IMG/VR virus record: IMGVR_UViG_3300021960_009431
Direction: 5' to 3' (one strand)
Length of the DNA: 64,000 nt
Origin: a virus
Shown here: positions 33,979 through 59,330 of the stretch, one piece after another
How positions within the stretch are numbered: position 1 is the first letter of the stretch
How the letters are laid out: every line of letters starts with the position of its first letter
Program-made: the position numbers and the translations under genes
Notes under the pieces: generated by a model
Seen by the model: only the letters and a program-made list of their open reading frames with translations
What the model was told of the DNA's origin: nothing
Databases searched by the model: none

Positions 33979-35693
33979 TGATCTATTTTAAATATCTTCG
34001 TTGGAAGAATTTTCTTTCAACTGGAAATGTATTTACTGAATTAAAATTAGATAAAGCAAAATCTACTCTTGTAGTAGGTGAAAATGGTGCTGGTAAAAGT
34101 ACTATGCTCGACGCTTTGTCCTTTGCTCTGTATGGTAAACCGTTTCGTAAAATTAATAAACCTCAACTTATGAATACTATTAACCAAAAAGGTTTAGAAG
34201 TGCAAGTTGAGTTTCGTGTTGGTAAAAAAGAATATATGATCGTACGAGGTGTCAAACCTAATAAGTTTGAGATTTATGAGAACGATAAAATTATTAATCA
34301 AGATGCAGCAGCTAGAGATTATCAAGAAGTCTTAGAAAAAAATATTCTTAAACTTAATCATAAATCCTTTAGTCAGATTGTTGTACTAGGTAGTAGTACG
34401 TTTGTTCCTTTTATGCAACTTCCTTCAATGCATCGTAGAGAAGTTATTGAAGACTTACTTGATATTCAAATTTTCTCTACGATGAACACTCTTTTAAAAG
34501 ATAAAGTAAATAATAATAAATCTGAAATTCTTGATAACGACTATAATATTAATCTTGCTGAAGAAAAGATTAAAATGCAGCACCAGTATATTAATGAGTT
34601 AAAGCAAAACACTGAGAAGCGCGTTAATGAAGCTAAGGTAAAAGTAGTCAAAGCAGAAAAAGAAAAACAAGAATATAATACGTTAATAGATACTCTTCAA
34701 GATCAAGTTAATATATTACAAGAAAGTATTTCTGATTTTGAAAGCTTAACTAAAAAGAAATCTAAGGTAGAGCAGCTAGAATATAAACTTCAAGAAAAAA
34801 TTAAAAAGCTTGAACATGATATTGAGTTCTATCAAGATCATGATAACTGTCCTGTGTGTAAGCAAGACATCGAAGAAGACTTTAAAGATCAGACGATTGA
34901 AGAAAAAGAAACTTCATTAAATGAGACTGTAAATGGTTTTAATCAGTTAAGAGAAGAATGGCAATCGATTAATAATCGTATACAAGAAATCTCTGAAGTA
35001 CAGTTAGATATTTCGTCTAAGCAGAATGAAATTAGCAGTAACAATTCTCACATCAATGCTTTAAATAAACTTATTGACAGTATTAATGAAGATATTACCA
35101 GTATTGATGATAGCGATAAATCAGATAAGTCAGATAAAAAGAAATTAGAGACATTAGAAAAAGCTTTAGTTAAACTACAATCTTATAAAGAAGAAATAAT
35201 AAATGAGCGATCTGTTTTAGATATTGCATCGATGATTCTTAAAGATTCTGGTATTAAAACTCGTATTATTAAACAATATATTCCAGTAATGAATAAACTT
35301 ATTAATAAGTATCTTGCTGCAATGGATTTCTTTGTTGACTTTCAGCTTGATGAAAACTTTAATGAAACTATAAAGAGTAGGTTCCGAGATGTATTTTCCT
35401 ATGCTTCCTTCTCAGAAGGTGAAAAGATGCGTATTGATCTTGCGTTATTGTTTACTTGGAGAGCTGTATCAAAGTTACGTAACTCAGTAAGTACTAATCT
35501 TCTTATTATGGATGAAGTATTTGACTCATCTTTAGATAATACTGGTACAGAAGAGTTTTTAAAGATACTAAATGACTTGACTTCTGATACAAATGTCTTT
35601 ATAATAAGTCATAAAGGTGATCAACTCTATGATAAATTTCATAGTGTTATTCGTTTTGAGAAGCATAAAAACTTTAGTAGGGTTGCAGCATGA
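33978..35693 (+). CDS. gp46: Recombination endonuclease subunit gp46 (Rad50-like)
   Basis: GENGAGKST; CPVC zinc hook; FSEGEKMR; MDEVFD. Confidence 0.97.
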   Translation: MIYFKYLRWKNFLSTGNVFTELKLDKAKSTLVVGENGAGKSTMLDALSFALYGKPFRKINKPQLMNTINQKGLEVQVEFRVGKKEYMIVRGVKPNKFEIYENDKIINQDAAARDYQEVLEKNILKLNHKSFSQIVVLGSSTFVPFMQLPSMHRREVIEDLLDIQIFSTMNTLLKDKVNNNKSEILDNDYNINLAEEKIKMQHQYINELKQNTEKRVNEAKVKVVKAEKEKQEYNTLIDTLQDQVNILQESISDFESLTKKKSKVEQLEYKLQEKIKKLEHDIEFYQDHDNCPVCKQDIEEDFKDQTIEEKETSLNETVNGFNQLREEWQSINNRIQEISEVQLDISSKQNEISSNNSHINALNKLIDSINEDITSIDDSDKSDKSDKKKLETLEKALVKLQSYKEEIINERSVLDIASMILKDSGIKTRIIKQYIPVMNKLINKYLAAMDFFVDFQLDENFNETIKSRFRDVFSYASFSEGEKMRIDLALLFTWRAVSKLRNSVSTNLLIMDEVFDSSLDNTGTEEFLKILNDLTSDTNVFIISHKGDQLYDKFHSVIRFEKHKNFSRVAA

Positions 35694-36226
35694 TAATGAA
35701 TTTAGTGAAATCAAATGATCCAATATTAAAACAGAAATGTGAAATGTTTGATTTTGATAATCCACCGATGGATCCATTAAAATTAGCGCTTGACTTAAGA
35801 GAGAGTATGATATATCATAAGGGTATTGGTTTATCTGCTTGTCAGGTTGGTATACCATATAGAGTATTTGTTGCTGGTGATCCAGGTGATATTGATAATA
35901 TTAAAGTATTTTTTAATCCGAGAGTAGTTGATGCATCGGATCAAAAAGTTTTGATAGAGGAAGGATGCTTATCTTTCCCTGGTTTGTTTATGAAGGTAAA
36001 ACGTCCAGCCACAGTACGACTTCGATTTGCTGATCCTAGAGGTACAATAGCTACAGAGACATATGAAGGTGTACCAGCACGAGCTATTCTACATGAATAT
36101 GATCATATGGATGGTATATTGTTTCATAATCGTGCTAATTCATATCATAGAGATCAAGCAAAAAAACAGAAAAAAAAGTTAGATAGGCTTCGCGAAGCTA
36201 ATAAAAAGAAGCTAAGTAAAGTATAA
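35690..36226 (+). CDS. def: Peptide deformylase
   Basis: GIGLSACQVG, EEGCLS, HEYDHMDG. Confidence 0.93.
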   Translation: MIMNLVKSNDPILKQKCEMFDFDNPPMDPLKLALDLRESMIYHKGIGLSACQVGIPYRVFVAGDPGDIDNIKVFFNPRVVDASDQKVLIEEGCLSFPGLFMKVKRPATVRLRFADPRGTIATETYEGVPARAILHEYDHMDGILFHNRANSYHRDQAKKQKKKLDRLREANKKKLSKV

Positions 36227-38343: not shown

Positions 38344-38501
38344 ATCATATGAATGTATCTTTTGTAAAAAGTGGTATACGAATAGGAGCTTGTATTTTAG
38401 GAATAACACTTCAAAGTATAACAGCGTTATGTTTTTTCTTGCTATTTGCCGAAATATTAGGTATAATAGAAGAAGTTGTAGATAAACGTGAGGAGAAATA
38501 A
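38340..38501 (+). CDS. 53-aa membrane protein (not in ORF track)
   Basis: MNHMNVSFVKSGIRIGACILG...FFLLFAEILGIIEEVVDKREEK; ATGA overlap with folE and TAATG overlap with the next gene. Confidence 0.7.
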   Translation: MNHMNVSFVKSGIRIGACILGITLQSITALCFFLLFAEILGIIEEVVDKREEK

Positions 38502-39283
38502 TGAAAATAGCGCATGAAGCTCCATTAAGTATCTTTGATCAAGTACAGGAGTTAACTGATTATGATTATGCTCTTGTACATCTATTTGAAGAGAATGATG
38601 ATTATTTTAATAAATTTATAGAAGCAAGAGATAAAGGTAGAGAGATCATTCTTGATAATTCTATCTTTGAACTCGGTACAGCATGGGATAGTGATAGATT
38701 TGCTTACTGGGTAGAGAAACTAAAACCTGATTGGTATATTGTACCTGATGTATTAGATAATAAAGACGCTACAATTGATAGCTTTGATGCGTTCATAGAA
38801 AAGTATCCTAACTTACCTGGAAAACGTATTGCTGTCGCTCAAGGTACTACTTATGAAGAGTTAGTTGATTGCTACGAATATCTTGCATATCATAATAAAG
38901 TAGATAAGATTGGTTTATCATTTAACCATCCGTTTTTTCAAGAATTAAATTTGCATAACAAATACTTTAATATGATGTTTGGAAGACAGATGACTCTAAC
39001 ATCAATGCTAGAAGATAAAATTATTAATAAAGATAAACCGCATCATCTATTAGGATGTGGTCTACCTCAGGAGTTTAGAGACTATGTAGACTATAAATGG
39101 ATTGATTCTATTGATACATCTAATCCTGTTATGCACGGTATTAAAAATGTACGTTACTTAGAGCATGGTTTAGAAGATAAAGAATCAGTAAAAATGTTTA
39201 CTATAATGGACGATAATGTTCTTGCATCTTGGGACGATATAGCTTATAATATAGAGAAGTTTAGAGGTTTCTGTAGTGGATAG
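38501..39283 (+). CDS. dpdA: TGT/DpdA-family 7-deazaguanine transglycosylase (DpdA3-like)
   Basis: TIM-barrel TGT-like motifs ILDNS.FE, IVPDVL, VAQG, HHLLG, SIDTS; embedded in the que cluster. Confidence 0.75.
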   Translation: MKIAHEAPLSIFDQVQELTDYDYALVHLFEENDDYFNKFIEARDKGREIILDNSIFELGTAWDSDRFAYWVEKLKPDWYIVPDVLDNKDATIDSFDAFIEKYPNLPGKRIAVAQGTTYEELVDCYEYLAYHNKVDKIGLSFNHPFFQELNLHNKYFNMMFGRQMTLTSMLEDKIINKDKPHHLLGCGLPQEFRDYVDYKWIDSIDTSNPVMHGIKNVRYLEHGLEDKESVKMFTIMDDNVLASWDDIAYNIEKFRGFCSG

Positions 39284-39806: not shown

Positions 39807-40138
39807 GTAAAAAAGATAAAAGCTTTTTTGAAACGTTGACTGTGTCTGTAGATAATACTGATGTTGAACCTACAATTACTTTAGGTGAAATTGATGAAGA
39901 TGGTGAGCCTCGTCCTAATCATTATAGTCAAGATCCTAATTCTATAGAATGTATTGAAGTTATTAAGCAGTTGTGTAAGGAACATCAGAACGATCCTTTT
40001 ACTGACTATAATAGATATCAAGCGTTCAAATATCTTTGGCGTATGGGTAAGAAAGATGATGTATTGTTTGATTTAAATAAAGCTATTACATTTTTGGAGT
40101 TTGCAAGGAAAGCATTAGAGGATGAACGTAATGGATGA
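39803..40138 (+). CDS. DUF3310 (T7 gp1.7-like nucleotide kinase family) protein
   Basis: PNHY...IECIEVI...KYLWRMGKK...DLNKA. Confidence 0.8.
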   Translation: MSKKDKSFFETLTVSVDNTDVEPTITLGEIDEDGEPRPNHYSQDPNSIECIEVIKQLCKEHQNDPFTDYNRYQAFKYLWRMGKKDDVLFDLNKAITFLEFARKALEDERNG

Positions 40139-41063
40139 AATTGAAAAAATTGCTAGTAAGGTATTAGGTAAAACGTCTGACGGATCTACTATGATGCGTT
40201 ATGAAACACCAGATGATATAGATGCTTCTTTACTCGTAGGCGTACCTAGACATCTCAATCGCACTGGTTACGGTATTAGTAATGACGGTTCAGAGTTATT
40301 TCATGGTATTGATGCTTGGAACGGTTATGAGTTTAGTTGTTTATTAGATAATGGATTTCCTGTTTCAGGTCTTCTTAAATGGAACTACCCTTCAGATTCA
40401 GAATGTATTGTTGAATCTAAATCTGCTAAGTTATATCTCAACTCTTTTAATATGGTTAAGATGGGGAAAACAGTTGAAGAAGCTATAGCTAATGTAGAAC
40501 AGAAAATTGATGAAGATATGGCACCTGTACTTGGTATTAGTGATGAATGGGACTTAAATGTATGTCTACATATGAATGAGGATCATACATCACGTCCTAT
40601 TTCAGGAACATTTATTCCACTTGAAGAAATTGTAGATGTAGCATCTATTGAATTTGATCATTATAATGAAGATCCAGAAATTATTAAATTAGAAGTAAAT
40701 GAAGATTATAGAGATATTAAATATCAATCTAAATCTCTTCGCTCTAATTGTCGAGTAACTAACCAGCCTGACTGGGGTGATATCTTTATTCATATAAAAG
40801 GTGATCGTATTCCTACACCTGAATCTTTATTGCAATATATTGTAAGTATGCGTAAAGAAAATCATTTCCATGAGGAAATATGTGAGTGTGTTTATAAACG
40901 TTTACATGATCTTTGTGGTCCAGAAGAATTAGTGGTTGCATGTCTATATACACGTCGTGGTGGTATTGATATTAATCCAGTAAGAGCAAGTAGTCCTCAA
41001 TTACTTACTCAACATCCGATCACCGACGCATTTAATATGTGTGATAAAACTATGCGTCAGTAA
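40131..41063 (+). CDS. queF: NADPH-dependent preQ0 reductase, bimodular type
   Basis: ESKSAKLYLNSFN; SNCRVTNQPDWG; FHEEICE; YTRRGGIDINP. Confidence 0.93.
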   Translation: MDEIEKIASKVLGKTSDGSTMMRYETPDDIDASLLVGVPRHLNRTGYGISNDGSELFHGIDAWNGYEFSCLLDNGFPVSGLLKWNYPSDSECIVESKSAKLYLNSFNMVKMGKTVEEAIANVEQKIDEDMAPVLGISDEWDLNVCLHMNEDHTSRPISGTFIPLEEIVDVASIEFDHYNEDPEIIKLEVNEDYRDIKYQSKSLRSNCRVTNQPDWGDIFIHIKGDRIPTPESLLQYIVSMRKENHFHEEICECVYKRLHDLCGPEELVVACLYTRRGGIDINPVRASSPQLLTQHPITDAFNMCDKTMRQ

Positions 41064-41115
41064 GTGGTTCATGAAAGCTAACCACTTTAAAAAACATACC
41101 GCTTTCATATTGGAG
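41062..41115 (+). ncRNA. preQ1-I riboswitch-like H-type pseudoknot (variant) in queC leader
   Basis: AAGTGG-TTCATG-AAAGCTAA-CCACTT-TAAAAAA-CATA, then GCTTTCAT complementary to loop ATGAAAGC, just before SD GGAG. Confidence 0.65.
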
Positions 41116-41121
41116 AACTAA

Positions 41122-41937
41122 ATGAAAAATATCGTTGTATCATTATCTGGAGGAATGGACTCCTCTACTCTACTGTTGCGCGCTATCAAAGAGGTAGGTG
41201 CAAGTAATGTAACAGCTTTGTCATTTGATTATGGACAGAAGCACGTTTGTGAATTAGAACGTGCTAAAGAAATAGTAAACTATCTTGCAGTACATGGGCA
41301 TACAATCAGGTATCAAGTTATTAAACTTGATGGTATTACTGAGTTGTTATCTTCAGCCCTTGTATCTGGAGGTGCAGATGTGCCTGAAGGTCATTATGCA
41401 GAAGATAATATGAAGCAGACGGTTGTACCTAATCGTAATAAAATCTTTGCTTCATTAGTTCAAGCTGTTGCTTTATCTGTAGTAAAAAATACTGAACAAG
41501 AAACAGCTATTGCATTAGGTATTCATGCCGGTGATCATGCAATTTACCCTGATTGTCGTCAAGAGTTTCGTGATGCAGATGATGAAGCATTTCGAATTGG
41601 TAACTGGGATGCTGATAAAGTAACTTATTTTACTCCTTATCTTGAAGGTGATAAGTTCGATATTCTAAAAGACGGTGAAGTACTTTGCGAGCAGCTAGGT
41701 TTAGACTTTGATGAAGTTTATTCTCGTACAAACACCTCATACAAACCTTTACAGATTGATGGAGTGTGGTTCTCTGATTATAAGAGTTCTTCTTCTGTCG
41801 AACGTCTGGAAGCGTTTATTAAACTAGGACGTCCTGATCCTGTCGCATATGCTGACGAAACAGGTCCTGTTCCTTATGAGATAGCTAGAGCACATGCTCA
41901 GCTAGTACTCAAGGAATATCAAAGTAACGCAGCATGA
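41122..41937 (+). CDS. queC: 7-cyano-7-deazaguanine synthase
   Basis: SLSGGMDS PP-loop; YGQKH; VPNRN; YPDCR. Confidence 0.93.
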   Translation: MKNIVVSLSGGMDSSTLLLRAIKEVGASNVTALSFDYGQKHVCELERAKEIVNYLAVHGHTIRYQVIKLDGITELLSSALVSGGADVPEGHYAEDNMKQTVVPNRNKIFASLVQAVALSVVKNTEQETAIALGIHAGDHAIYPDCRQEFRDADDEAFRIGNWDADKVTYFTPYLEGDKFDILKDGEVLCEQLGLDFDEVYSRTNTSYKPLQIDGVWFSDYKSSSSVERLEAFIKLGRPDPVAYADETGPVPYEIARAHAQLVLKEYQSNAA

Positions 41938-41948
41938 AAGGATAATAA

Positions 41949-42557
41949 ATGCTGAAACAAATGTTTAATCTCGAAGCAGTAGATCGATCTCTATTGTGGA
42001 AACTGGTACTTACACATCTAGTAATCATTGCTGCTTCAAACTATATTGTTCAATTTAGTGGTATGATTTTTGGTTACCACTTTACATGGGCAATGTTTAT
42101 CTTCCCACTTGTAGTGATTGCTACTGACTTAACTATCCGATTAACTAATAAGTATCAAGCTCGAATGGTAGTAGCTATTGCTTTTATTCCAGCTATTTTT
42201 ATTAGCTCTTATATTGCTACTCCAATGATTGGATTAGCTAGTGCTCTTGCATATCTAGTAGGTCAGTTATTTGATGTATCTGTCTTTCAGAAAATTAGAG
42301 AAGCATTTACAGAACGTTGGTGGGTAGCACCTGCAGTATCAACGTTTGTTGCTAATATTGTTGATACCTATCTATTCTTCTGGGCAGCATTCGCATATGG
42401 CAATGATGAGTTTATGGCAGCTAATTGGTTAGAAATTGCTACTGTAGATGTAATCTTTAAAATTATCGTATCATTTGTAATGTTCTTACCTATATACGGT
42501 GTACTACTTCGATATCTACGTACACGTATGGAAGTAGGTACAGGTGGAACTTATTAA
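41949..42557 (+). CDS. yhhQ: Queuosine-precursor (preQ0/preQ1) transporter, YhhQ/Vut_1 family
   Basis: ASNY, FP....TD, AY.VGQ.FDV.VF, S.FVANIVDT.LFF; about six TM helices. Confidence 0.88.
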   Translation: MLKQMFNLEAVDRSLLWKLVLTHLVIIAASNYIVQFSGMIFGYHFTWAMFIFPLVVIATDLTIRLTNKYQARMVVAIAFIPAIFISSYIATPMIGLASALAYLVGQLFDVSVFQKIREAFTERWWVAPAVSTFVANIVDTYLFFWAAFAYGNDEFMAANWLEIATVDVIFKIIVSFVMFLPIYGVLLRYLRTRMEVGTGGTY

Positions 42558-42572
42558 AAATAAGGTTATATA

Positions 42573-43079
42573 ATGACAATGATTAATATCGGAGGCAGTA
42601 ATGCTGCCTCCTCTTTAACTAACGTTCAAGAAAAAGACGTTCAACCTAATGCAGTTGATTTGCGGGTTGATAAAATTCTAAAGATTCTCGGTAATGATTT
42701 TACTATTGACGAGGATCAAAAAGTTCATAGAGGATCAGAAGAACTAGAGCCTGATAAAGATGGTTACTTTCATCTTGAACCAGGTGCTTATGAAGTATTA
42801 ATGGAAAATATTATTACTATTGGTCATGGAGAAGCTGGTTGGGTTATTCCTCGTTCTACTTTAAATCGTAATGGTGTATTTCTAACTTCTGGATTATATG
42901 ATTCAGGTTATAAAGGTGTTATGGCTAGTGTAATGCATGTTACTACAGGTACAATGCATATTGCTAAAGGTACACGTATCGGTCAATATCTTAACTTTCA
43001 AGCAGAGACATTATCTATGTATGACGGTGATTATGGTATTGGTAAAGAGTTTGACAAAAAAAATTATGAGGGGAAATGA
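42573..43079 (+). CDS. Trimeric dUTPase / dCTP-deaminase-fold protein
   Basis: QPNAVDLR; PRSTLNRNG; YDSGYKG; RIGQ. Confidence 0.85.
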   Translation: MTMINIGGSNAASSLTNVQEKDVQPNAVDLRVDKILKILGNDFTIDEDQKVHRGSEELEPDKDGYFHLEPGAYEVLMENIITIGHGEAGWVIPRSTLNRNGVFLTSGLYDSGYKGVMASVMHVTTGTMHIAKGTRIGQYLNFQAETLSMYDGDYGIGKEFDKKNYEGK

Positions 43080-43947: not shown

Positions 43948-44616
43948 ATGAAACTAACCGCAAAAACCTTTCAGGTACTAAAGAACTTTTCTTCTATTAA
44001 TCAGTCTATTTACTTTACTCAAGGTAATAAGATTCGTACTATTTCACCTATGAAGACTATTATGGCTGAAGCAGAAGTACAAGAAATGTTTCCTCGTGAC
44101 TTTGGTATCTATGATCTTAATCAGTTTCTTGGAGTGCTTAGTCTCTTTGAAGAACCTGATCTAGATTTTGATACATCATACTTAACTATCAATAGTGAAG
44201 ATAAAGCACAGAGTGATTACTTCTATGCTGATAAATCTATGATTGTAGTTCCTCCAGAAAAGCAACTGGAACTACCAGATACATCTATTAGCTTTACTAT
44301 TAGCGATAGTGTACTTAAACGAGTACAACAAGCTGCTAATGTACTTCAACTTCCTGAAGTAGTGGTAAAAGGTGATGGTGAAGAAATTTCGTTCCGTGCA
44401 ATGAATACAAAAAACTCCTCCTCTAACTCTTTTCATTATAAAGTTGGTGTAACTGATAAAGTCTTCTCTATGGTGTTTAAAGTAGAAAATCTTAAGTTGC
44501 TTCTAGGCTCATATGATGTTACAATTAGTAGTAAAGGTATTTCTCAGTTTAAATCTACTGACGGTAACCTAAATTATACTATTGTAAATGAAGCTTCGTC
44601 ATCGTATGAGGGATAA
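43948..44616 (+). CDS. gp45: Sliding clamp gp45
   Basis: VLKNFSSINQSI; FGIYDLNQFL; FKVENLKL. Confidence 0.95.
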   Translation: MKLTAKTFQVLKNFSSINQSIYFTQGNKIRTISPMKTIMAEAEVQEMFPRDFGIYDLNQFLGVLSLFEEPDLDFDTSYLTINSEDKAQSDYFYADKSMIVVPPEKQLELPDTSISFTISDSVLKRVQQAANVLQLPEVVVKGDGEEISFRAMNTKNSSSNSFHYKVGVTDKVFSMVFKVENLKLLLGSYDVTISSKGISQFKSTDGNLNYTIVNEASSSYEG

Positions 44617-44617
44617 A

Positions 44618-45187
44618 ATGTATGTTGATGAATACATATATGTAAAACGTAAATTCTTAACAGAAGACGAATGTGATAAACTATTTAAAACATCTTCTAT
44701 TTACAAAGAAAGAGATTTAAGCTATTTTGGTGAAAAAGAAAACAAACCAAAAAACTATCCTAATAGTGGATTGTTAAATGAAGAAACACTACTTAATCAT
44801 AATGAAACATTTAATGATAAGATAAAAAAATTAGCACAAGAGTATTATAATAGATATACAAACAATTTACTATCATTAACTGATTTATCAGATGGTCTAA
44901 TTCATTACTATGGTAAAGGAACGTCTTTTGATGATCATATAGATGACATACATGGATTATTTGATGGTGAAAAAAAAGGTGTGCCTCAATTATCTACAAT
45001 CACATCTCTCTCAAGTGATTATGAAGGAGGTGAAATAGTATTTAATTATCCAGGCTCTACAAATGAAAATAATTTTAAATTAAATTGCGGTGATGTTATT
45101 ATTTTTCCAAGCTGTTTTATATATAAACATTACATAAAAACTATTACTGATGGTTATAGATGTACAATTGTAAAATGGTTATGGTAA
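44618..45187 (+). CDS. 2OG-Fe(II) oxygenase
   Basis: HID; YEGGE; GDVIIFPS..Y.H.I..ITDGYR. Confidence 0.85.
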   Translation: MYVDEYIYVKRKFLTEDECDKLFKTSSIYKERDLSYFGEKENKPKNYPNSGLLNEETLLNHNETFNDKIKKLAQEYYNRYTNNLLSLTDLSDGLIHYYGKGTSFDDHIDDIHGLFDGEKKGVPQLSTITSLSSDYEGGEIVFNYPGSTNENNFKLNCGDVIIFPSCFIYKHYIKTITDGYRCTIVKWLW

Positions 45188-59088: not shown

Positions 59089-59165
59089 CTCCGCTTAGCT
59101 CAGCTGGATAGAGCAAGTGCCTTCTAAGCACTAGGTCGGGGGTTCGAATCCCTCAGCGGAGGCCA
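59089..59165 (+). tRNA. tRNA-Arg(TCT)
   Basis: Acceptor CTCCGCT/AGCGGAG; anticodon arm AGTGC-CTTCTAA-GCACT; TTCGAAT loop; encoded CCA. Confidence 0.95.
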
Positions 59166-59168
59166 TAA

Positions 59169-59243
59169 AAGGGTGAAGTGTTAACGGCTGCACGTCGGAT
59201 TCCAAATCCGAAAGATAGGGTTCGACTCCTTACACCTTTGCCA
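59169..59243 (+). tRNA. tRNA-Trp(CCA)
   Basis: Acceptor AAGGGTG/CACCTTT; TCGGA-TTCCAAA-TCCGA; G discriminator; CCA. Confidence 0.9.
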
Positions 59244-59253
59244 CACTGTTTAA

Positions 59254-59330
59254 GCTCTCGTAGCTCAATTGGTTAGAGCGCCCCGCTCATAACGGGTCGG
59301 TTGCAGGTTCGAGTCCTGCCAGGAGCACCA
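59254..59330 (+). tRNA. tRNA with CAT anticodon, probably Ile2 (lysidine) rather than Met
   Basis: G1-C72 paired; CCCG-CTCATAA-CGGG; GCAGGTTCGAGTCCTGC T-arm resembling alphaproteobacterial Ile2; CCA. Confidence 0.85.

Follow-up and report, generated by a model that had tools for sequence, protein, structure and literature searches.

The spacer between queF and queC in the viral DNA analysed here (IMG/VR record IMGVR_UViG_3300021960_009431; the whole stretch of 64,000 nucleotides is called the window below) encodes an H-type RNA pseudoknot of about 46 nt. Judging from comparisons among related phages, the element is a real and previously undescribed, phage-specific riboswitch candidate. The explanation that best fits the results as a whole, and in which we have slightly better than even confidence, is that such pseudoknots, confined to the queC leaders of phages, would act as riboswitch-type sensors of an intermediate of the 7-deazaguanine pathway. 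The original prediction had proposed that a pseudoknot precedes queC in a phage DNA-modification operon, and the bases and positions on which it relied (the stem 41062-67/41082-87, the A at 41081, GGAG at 41112-15 and the ATG at 41122) are exact. The parts of the element and the flanking genes are as follows.

40122-41063, + strand: queF, bimodular NADPH-dependent preQ0 reductase (Pfam QueF_N, 2.9e-23; QueF, 9.2e-19)
41063-41069, + strand: 5' strand of P1, 7 nt (six pairs counted, 99.5% of cells paired)
41070-41072, + strand: L1, a variable linker of 1-3 nt, conserved among relatives in neither sequence nor length
41073-41078, + strand: 5' strand of P2, conserved 6-bp core (complementarity from 41071 in the window)
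41079, + strand: L2, a single U at the P1/P2 junction, an invariant column in all three sequence types
41080-41086, + strand: 3' strand of P1, including A41081, which pairs with U41068
41087-41100, + strand: L3, 14 nt, with an A-rich 5' part and columns invariant in relatives
41101-41108, + strand: 3' strand of P2 (conserved core 41101-41106; P2 totals 6-8 bp)
41112-41115, + strand: Shine-Dalgarno sequence GGAG, 3 nt after P2 and outside the conserved pairing
41122-41937, + strand: queC, 7-cyano-7-deazaguanine synthase (Pfam QueC, 2.1e-36)
41949-42557, + strand: yhhQ-like gene (Vut_1), putative preQ0/preQ1 transporter (Pfam Vut_1, 2.9e-22)

P1 is counted as 7 bp because A41081 and A41080 pair with U41068 and U41069. 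In the window, an eighth pair is possible between A41062 and U41087. P2 is formed by the hairpin loop and a stretch just upstream of the ribosome-binding site, and positions 41071-72 of L1 can extend it in the window. Within L3 the invariant positions are A41089 and A41090 and, at the 3' end, A41096, Y41097, A41098 and C41099, followed by one pyrimidine.

The structure was evaluated by comparison with related phages, as the original prediction had suggested, and conserved structure was found in both helices. QueC-baited searches of IMG/VR returned 238 loci, among which about 30 distinct leaders resembled that of the window (type A); these were aligned, a covariance model (R1) was built and its 32 matches were re-aligned. 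In this model-fitted alignment of related sequences, from which the covariation counts were taken, 97.6% of the cells of P1 and the long P2 were paired, and seven pairs changed on both sides, with 36 such cells among 31 distinct relatives. Three of the pairs in P1 changed on both sides, among them G-C replaced by A-U and U-A replaced by A-U. Replacement of G-C by G-U was also seen in P1, and the seventh pair, U41069-A41080, was invariant. In P2, which occurred in 17 different sequence types, 95.7% of the cells were paired and four of the six pairs changed on both sides; the few unpaired cells were rows misaligned by one base by the model. The occurrence of G-U wobble pairs indicates that the folded species is the + strand RNA. 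When model R1 was run on the 64-kb window, its only match was the queF-queC spacer (73 bits), and more than one copy of the motif per locus was never seen in all fetched DNA and the window.

A chance resemblance in a functionless spacer is already refuted by these data, and we give it practically no weight. The one point on its side is that the nested minimum-free-energy fold of the spacer is not unusual (z = -1.63), as would be expected of a pseudoknot. Against it, both helices covary, none of 500 shuffles matched the paired fraction or the covariation score of type A, and pairing registers slid by 1-3 columns were only 30-55% paired. Moreover, more than 130 matches obtained from the motif alone were all followed by queC.

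The comparison also changes the way in which the element should be read. The original prediction had described the layout of the preQ1-I riboswitch, with a short P2 (AUG 41071-73 with CAU 41095-97) and with A41081 as an altered, unpaired specificity base, and had proposed a switch between this short P2 and a second, perfect 8-bp register (41071-78 with 41101-08). The short P2 was paired in only 59.8% of the cells among the 31 distinct relatives. A41081 turned out to be part of P1, as its position formed a U-A pair in 30 of the 31 relatives and an A-U pair in the remaining one and was unpaired in none. The perfect 8-bp complement is indeed present; it is the real P2, with a covarying core, rather than an alternative state. 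Since the short P2 is unconserved and the long register is the real P2, there is no evidence for a two-state switch between registers.

The resemblance to preQ1-I is nevertheless real. Both are small H-type pseudoknots with a P1 of roughly 5 bp and of similar sequence, an A-rich L3 along P1, and a P2 formed with a stretch before the ribosome-binding site; both stand 5' of queC/yhhQ-type genes and the ligand class, 7-deazaguanines, is likely the same. Bacterial preQ1 riboswitches typically control queC and yhhQ (PMC10622847, PMC11625349). In preQ1-I, a cytosine just 5' of the 3' strand of P1 pairs with preQ1 and is preceded by U or A, so that the specificity base is found as UC in type I and as AC in types II and III (PMC11625349). 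Changing this C to U reduces the preQ1 affinity of the canonical aptamer about 64,000-fold (PMC10622847). The element described here, in contrast, has no C before the 3' strand of P1, where an invariant U and then a paired A stand instead. The bases at and around the corresponding position are U41079, A41080 and A41081, and both A's are paired. C41082, the first C, has G41067 as its partner. It is replaced by U in six relatives, with G-U in three and A-U in three (two distinct rows), so the pair G41067-C41082, which a preQ1-I reading would take as the floor of the pocket, is variable. Further differences from preQ1-I are that P2 has 6-8 bp instead of 3-4, that it is separated from the A-tract by the invariant A-Y-A-C plus one or two nt, that the Shine-Dalgarno sequence lies outside P2, and that the element is known only from phages.

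A true preQ1-I variant, in which the ligand-pairing C was changed to A41081 and the RNA toggled between the short P2 and the longer register, is therefore hard to maintain on this pairing evidence, and we regard it as very improbable. It is true that P1 in its sequence, L1 in its U-rich start and L3 in its A-tract resemble the family consensus and that the gene context is typical, and PreQ1 (RF00522), the model with which the original prediction proposed to search, was the best Rfam family on the spacer (41058-41103, E 0.027 on 261 nt with permissive settings). However, its score of 21.4 bits compares with a gathering score of 39; the best relative (L054) reached 27.2 bits and every tested member stayed below the threshold. 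At the gathering threshold Rfam returned only three tRNAs and no PreQ1 on the window (a three-tRNA cluster lies at 59089-59327; Rfam tRNA, 46-67 bits). The likeness in P1 sequence, A-rich L3 and gene context thus stands, while the defining features of the preQ1-I pocket are missing.

Membership of other known families was also considered. The preQ1-II and preQ1-III classes are pseudoknotted sensors of queuosine precursors with translational control, as might be the case for the present candidate, and class III has its expression platform apart from the pocket. On the other hand, their HLout pseudoknots contain extra helices and, at about 80-100 nt, are much larger. They occur only in Bacillota, in association with queT, and neither Rfam family matched the spacer in the permissive search. 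Rfam holds no family for the element, since type A gave sub-threshold PreQ1 matches only and the leaders of the two further sequence types described below gave no Rfam match at all; membership of any Rfam family was consequently rejected.

The topology of type A recurred in other phage queC leaders as two additional sequence types. The immuto type, present in Flavobacterium phage immuto, has a covarying 5-bp P1 and an invariant 3-bp G+C P2; in the intermediate type P2 has 5 bp, three of which covary. Across the three types the paired fraction was 97.6-99.6% of the cells and 3-7 pairs showed changes on both sides, and in each none of 500 shuffles matched the paired fraction or the covariation score, although by the number of covarying pairs the sister types were weaker (47 and 33 of 500 shuffles). 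All three types have U-A as the top pair of P1 and C-G as the P2 pair nearest the junction. They also have an invariant U directly 5' of the second P1 strand, and the last nucleotides of their L3 are A, A/C, A, Y, A and C, with one or two more after these. Model R1, built on type A, does not detect the other two types. We infer that the three types form one family, from their architecture, shared invariants and shared gene and not from one statistical model. In all three, the unpaired junction nucleotides are invariant and the helix sequences vary freely. This pattern is typical of binding pockets and makes the junction a candidate for one.

Well over a hundred further phage contigs carry the motif. 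Its association with queC was assessed by motif-first scans of IMG/VR, i.e., pattern searches without queC as bait. The type A scan gave 89 stretches, and those with a P2 of at least 6 bp were followed at once by QueC wherever the contig allowed a call; three intact copies were located at a contig end with no readable downstream ORF, and matches with a P2 of 3 bp or less never preceded QueC. The immuto-type scan gave at least 120 matches, at least 88 of which had an intact P1 and were all followed by QueC. Among the matches listed, seven more had an intact P1 and no callable ORF, 24 had a broken P1 and did not precede QueC, and one (L389), with four of the five P1 pairs, did precede it. Taking both scans, roughly 60 matches with broken helices were not followed by QueC, L389 being the only exception. 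The link to queC is exclusive among intact copies for which the next gene is readable. Many queC genes of phages do not have the element at all.

In bacteria, a relaxed type A pattern searched against one genome each of 185,579 species gave two matches. One was a chance match in Spongiimicrobium. The other (L325:150-330) was on a 1.9-kb contig in a Melainabacteria MAG, where the motif stood between the end of queF and the start of queC; this contig is probably phage DNA mis-binned into the MAG. The immuto-type pattern gave chance matches only in 401 Flavobacteriaceae genomes. A bacterial origin was rejected on these scans, and the family appears to be phage-only within the reach of the patterns used, divergent forms of the motif being those that pattern-based searches of bacteria can miss.

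The element is embedded in a tightly packed operon. The module genes are all on the same strand and nearly all abut or overlap, and for this reason the 58-nt queF-queC spacer, the largest intergenic gap noticed, is conspicuous. The gene order is queE, queD, folE, then formyltransferase and queF, then queC and yhhQ. Pfam matches 5' of queF identified a peptide deformylase, a radical-SAM QueE-like protein, QueD (PTPS) and FolE; two ORFs without assignment, a PF00551 formyltransferase and a DUF3310 protein are also located there. The peptide deformylase gene (35690-36226) is directly 5' of the 7-deazaguanine module. The yhhQ-like gene starts 11 nt after queC and may be co-regulated with it through coupling. 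Further 3' are genes for the gp45 clamp and the gp44 clamp loader. A protein of the dCTP-deaminase/dUTPase fold is encoded after yhhQ (42573-43079), and the clamp and clamp-loader genes flank a gene for a 2OG-Fe(II) oxygenase (44588-45187). Both proteins may contribute further nucleotide- or DNA-modification functions.

The source is a T4-like marine phage. Its nearest cultured relatives by the clamp loader are the Methylophilales phage Melnitz group (64.5% identity). The queC DNA points instead to Flavobacterium phage immuto as the nearest (76%), a phage whose DNA contains formyl-preQ1 (preprint 10.1101/2023.04.13.536721). Two genes upstream of queF is the PurN-like formyltransferase (PF00551; 39276-39806), which resembles DpdN, the protein proposed for formyl-preQ1 DNA in phage immuto. 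The 260-aa protein encoded before it (38501-39283) has no Pfam match, belongs to phrog_19058 (unknown function) and could be the DNA transglycosylase of the module.

With respect to the ligand, preQ0 is the product of QueC and CDG is its substrate. Type A always follows queF, the intermediate-type genome G404 has QueF, and the immuto type occurs in QueF-bearing phages (immuto and G413). The immuto type also occurs in four genomes of about 160 kb rated 97-100% complete (G402, G403, G406 and G412, behind loci L063, L070, L075 and L146). A search for QueF (PF14489) in these four gave no match, and their phages presumably stop at preQ0-type DNA bases. As one family-wide ligand should suit phages with and without QueF, preQ0 or CDG would be a likelier common ligand than preQ1 or formyl-preQ1, although QueF of the host could blur this argument. 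The suggestion in the original prediction that the ligand is other than preQ1 could thus hold, and the formyl-preQ1 named among its candidates is less likely family-wide, given the complete sister-motif genomes without QueF.

For the sensor reading, the mechanism could be as follows. An intermediate of the 7-deazaguanine pathway, most parsimoniously preQ0, would bind at the P1/P2 junction in a pocket lined by the invariant uridine of L2, the uppermost pair of P1 (U-A), the terminal C-G pair of P2 and the A-Y-A-C with which L3 closes. The pseudoknot, the 3' edge of which is 13 nt before the start codon, would become more stable once the ligand is bound, and this would change the access of the 30S subunit to the start site of queC and possibly of yhhQ. 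Feedback repression seems the likeliest sign of regulation, which is a guess. In type A relatives P2 ends about 12-22 nt before the start codon; in the immuto type the edge of P2 is about 20-30 nt before the start and there is no Shine-Dalgarno sequence.

No clear expression platform was recognized, because the Shine-Dalgarno sequence lies outside the conserved pairing and a search over 17 P2 types found no conserved alternative (anti-SD or anti-start) structure (mean z -0.32). Several candidates were rejected. An ON-switch could be imagined in which the 3' strand of P2 (41103-08) pairs with the start region (41122-27), and this hairpin is predicted in the clade of the window; the complementarity is not retained over the 17 P2 types, as that mean z shows. 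Pairing of L1 with the Shine-Dalgarno sequence (41068-71 with 41111-14), taken from the nested MFE fold, is incompatible with the conserved pairs at the top of P1 and missing in relatives. A leader-peptide uORF is present in the window and some relatives. In the window it has 16 codons (41071-41121), with its AUG in the 5' strand of P2 and its UAA directly before the AUG of queC, and in L008-type relatives its frame ends with a UGA overlapping the queC start (AUGA). It is probably incidental because many variants have no AUG there. A terminator or attenuator was also not found near the element. Since no conserved alternative pairing, family-wide uORF or terminator was found, stabilisation by a ligand at the junction is the best-supported reading.

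Two other explanations stay alive because the long P2 of type A (6-8 bp) might fold without a ligand. One of them is a translational operator bound by a protein, QueC or another pathway enzyme, in the manner of T4 gene 32. The T4-like nature of the phage, with its gp45 clamp, gp44 clamp loader and Melnitz relative, would suit it, and so would a P2 stable enough to fold unaided. Like the gene 32 leader of T4 and T2, the queC element is a compact, coaxial H-type pseudoknot with a very short L1 and L2 in the leader of a T4-like phage, followed by an unstructured A/U-rich stretch with the start site, which is clearest in the immuto type. In this comparison by architecture, however, the gene 32 leader is an autoregulatory site for an ssDNA-binding protein on its own mRNA, whereas the present element is tied to a single metabolic gene; QueC, and not the gene of a nucleic-acid-binding protein, was downstream in every readable case. 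In addition, the invariant nucleotides of the queC element are concentrated where the helices meet, as they are in small-molecule pockets, and no candidate protein partner was identified. Some hosts of the motif phages use Shine-Dalgarno sites and the Flavobacterium ones do not, so a trans-acting partner would need to be shared by both groups. An operator of this type is in our opinion unlikely.

The other is a structure that functions independently of any ligand, either by fixing the translation rate of queC in the polycistronic mRNA or as an mRNA protection or processing site. It is consistent with the long P2 of type A, with the lack of a conserved alternative fold and with the stop codon of the upstream gene, which abuts P1 in many loci (the queF stop at 41061-63 abuts or overlaps the first P1 base in the window), so that terminating ribosomes must melt the pseudoknot, after which it would refold. 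On the other hand, such a structure would leave unexplained why single-stranded nucleotides are invariant and why the link to queC is exclusive across host phyla, and the immuto-type P2 of only 3 bp would be marginal without a stabiliser. We judge this possibility to be rather unlikely as well, and a sensor of a 7-deazaguanine intermediate remains the reading that we prefer.

The literature on phage or queC riboswitches, preQ0 riboswitches or a 'preQ1-IV' class yielded nothing relevant, and no riboswitch is mentioned in the paper on phage 7-deazaguanine pathways (preprint 10.1101/2023.04.13.536721). The riboswitches reported in Melnitz-group phages are glutamine riboswitches (PMC9004378). It is conceivable, at somewhat less than even confidence, that the element represents a fourth and phage-exclusive class of 7-deazaguanine riboswitches, which would recognize preQ0 or CDG through the U of L2 and the A-Y-A-C of L3 and tune queC during the replacement of guanine in phages of at least two host phyla. 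The hypothesis is directly testable at the bench because the element has only about 46 nt, many natural variants and an obvious panel of candidate ligands.

To our knowledge, riboswitches are rare in phages and the known ones are borrowed bacterial classes. DNA hypermodification, for which QueC makes preQ0, is an anti-restriction strategy. If the hypothesis is true, it would mean that phages evolve metabolite sensors of their own; it would also provide a new small fold for the recognition of 7-deazapurines, in a family that serves widely in research on RNA ligands and RNA drugs, and a genetic handle on how phages pace the replacement of guanine.
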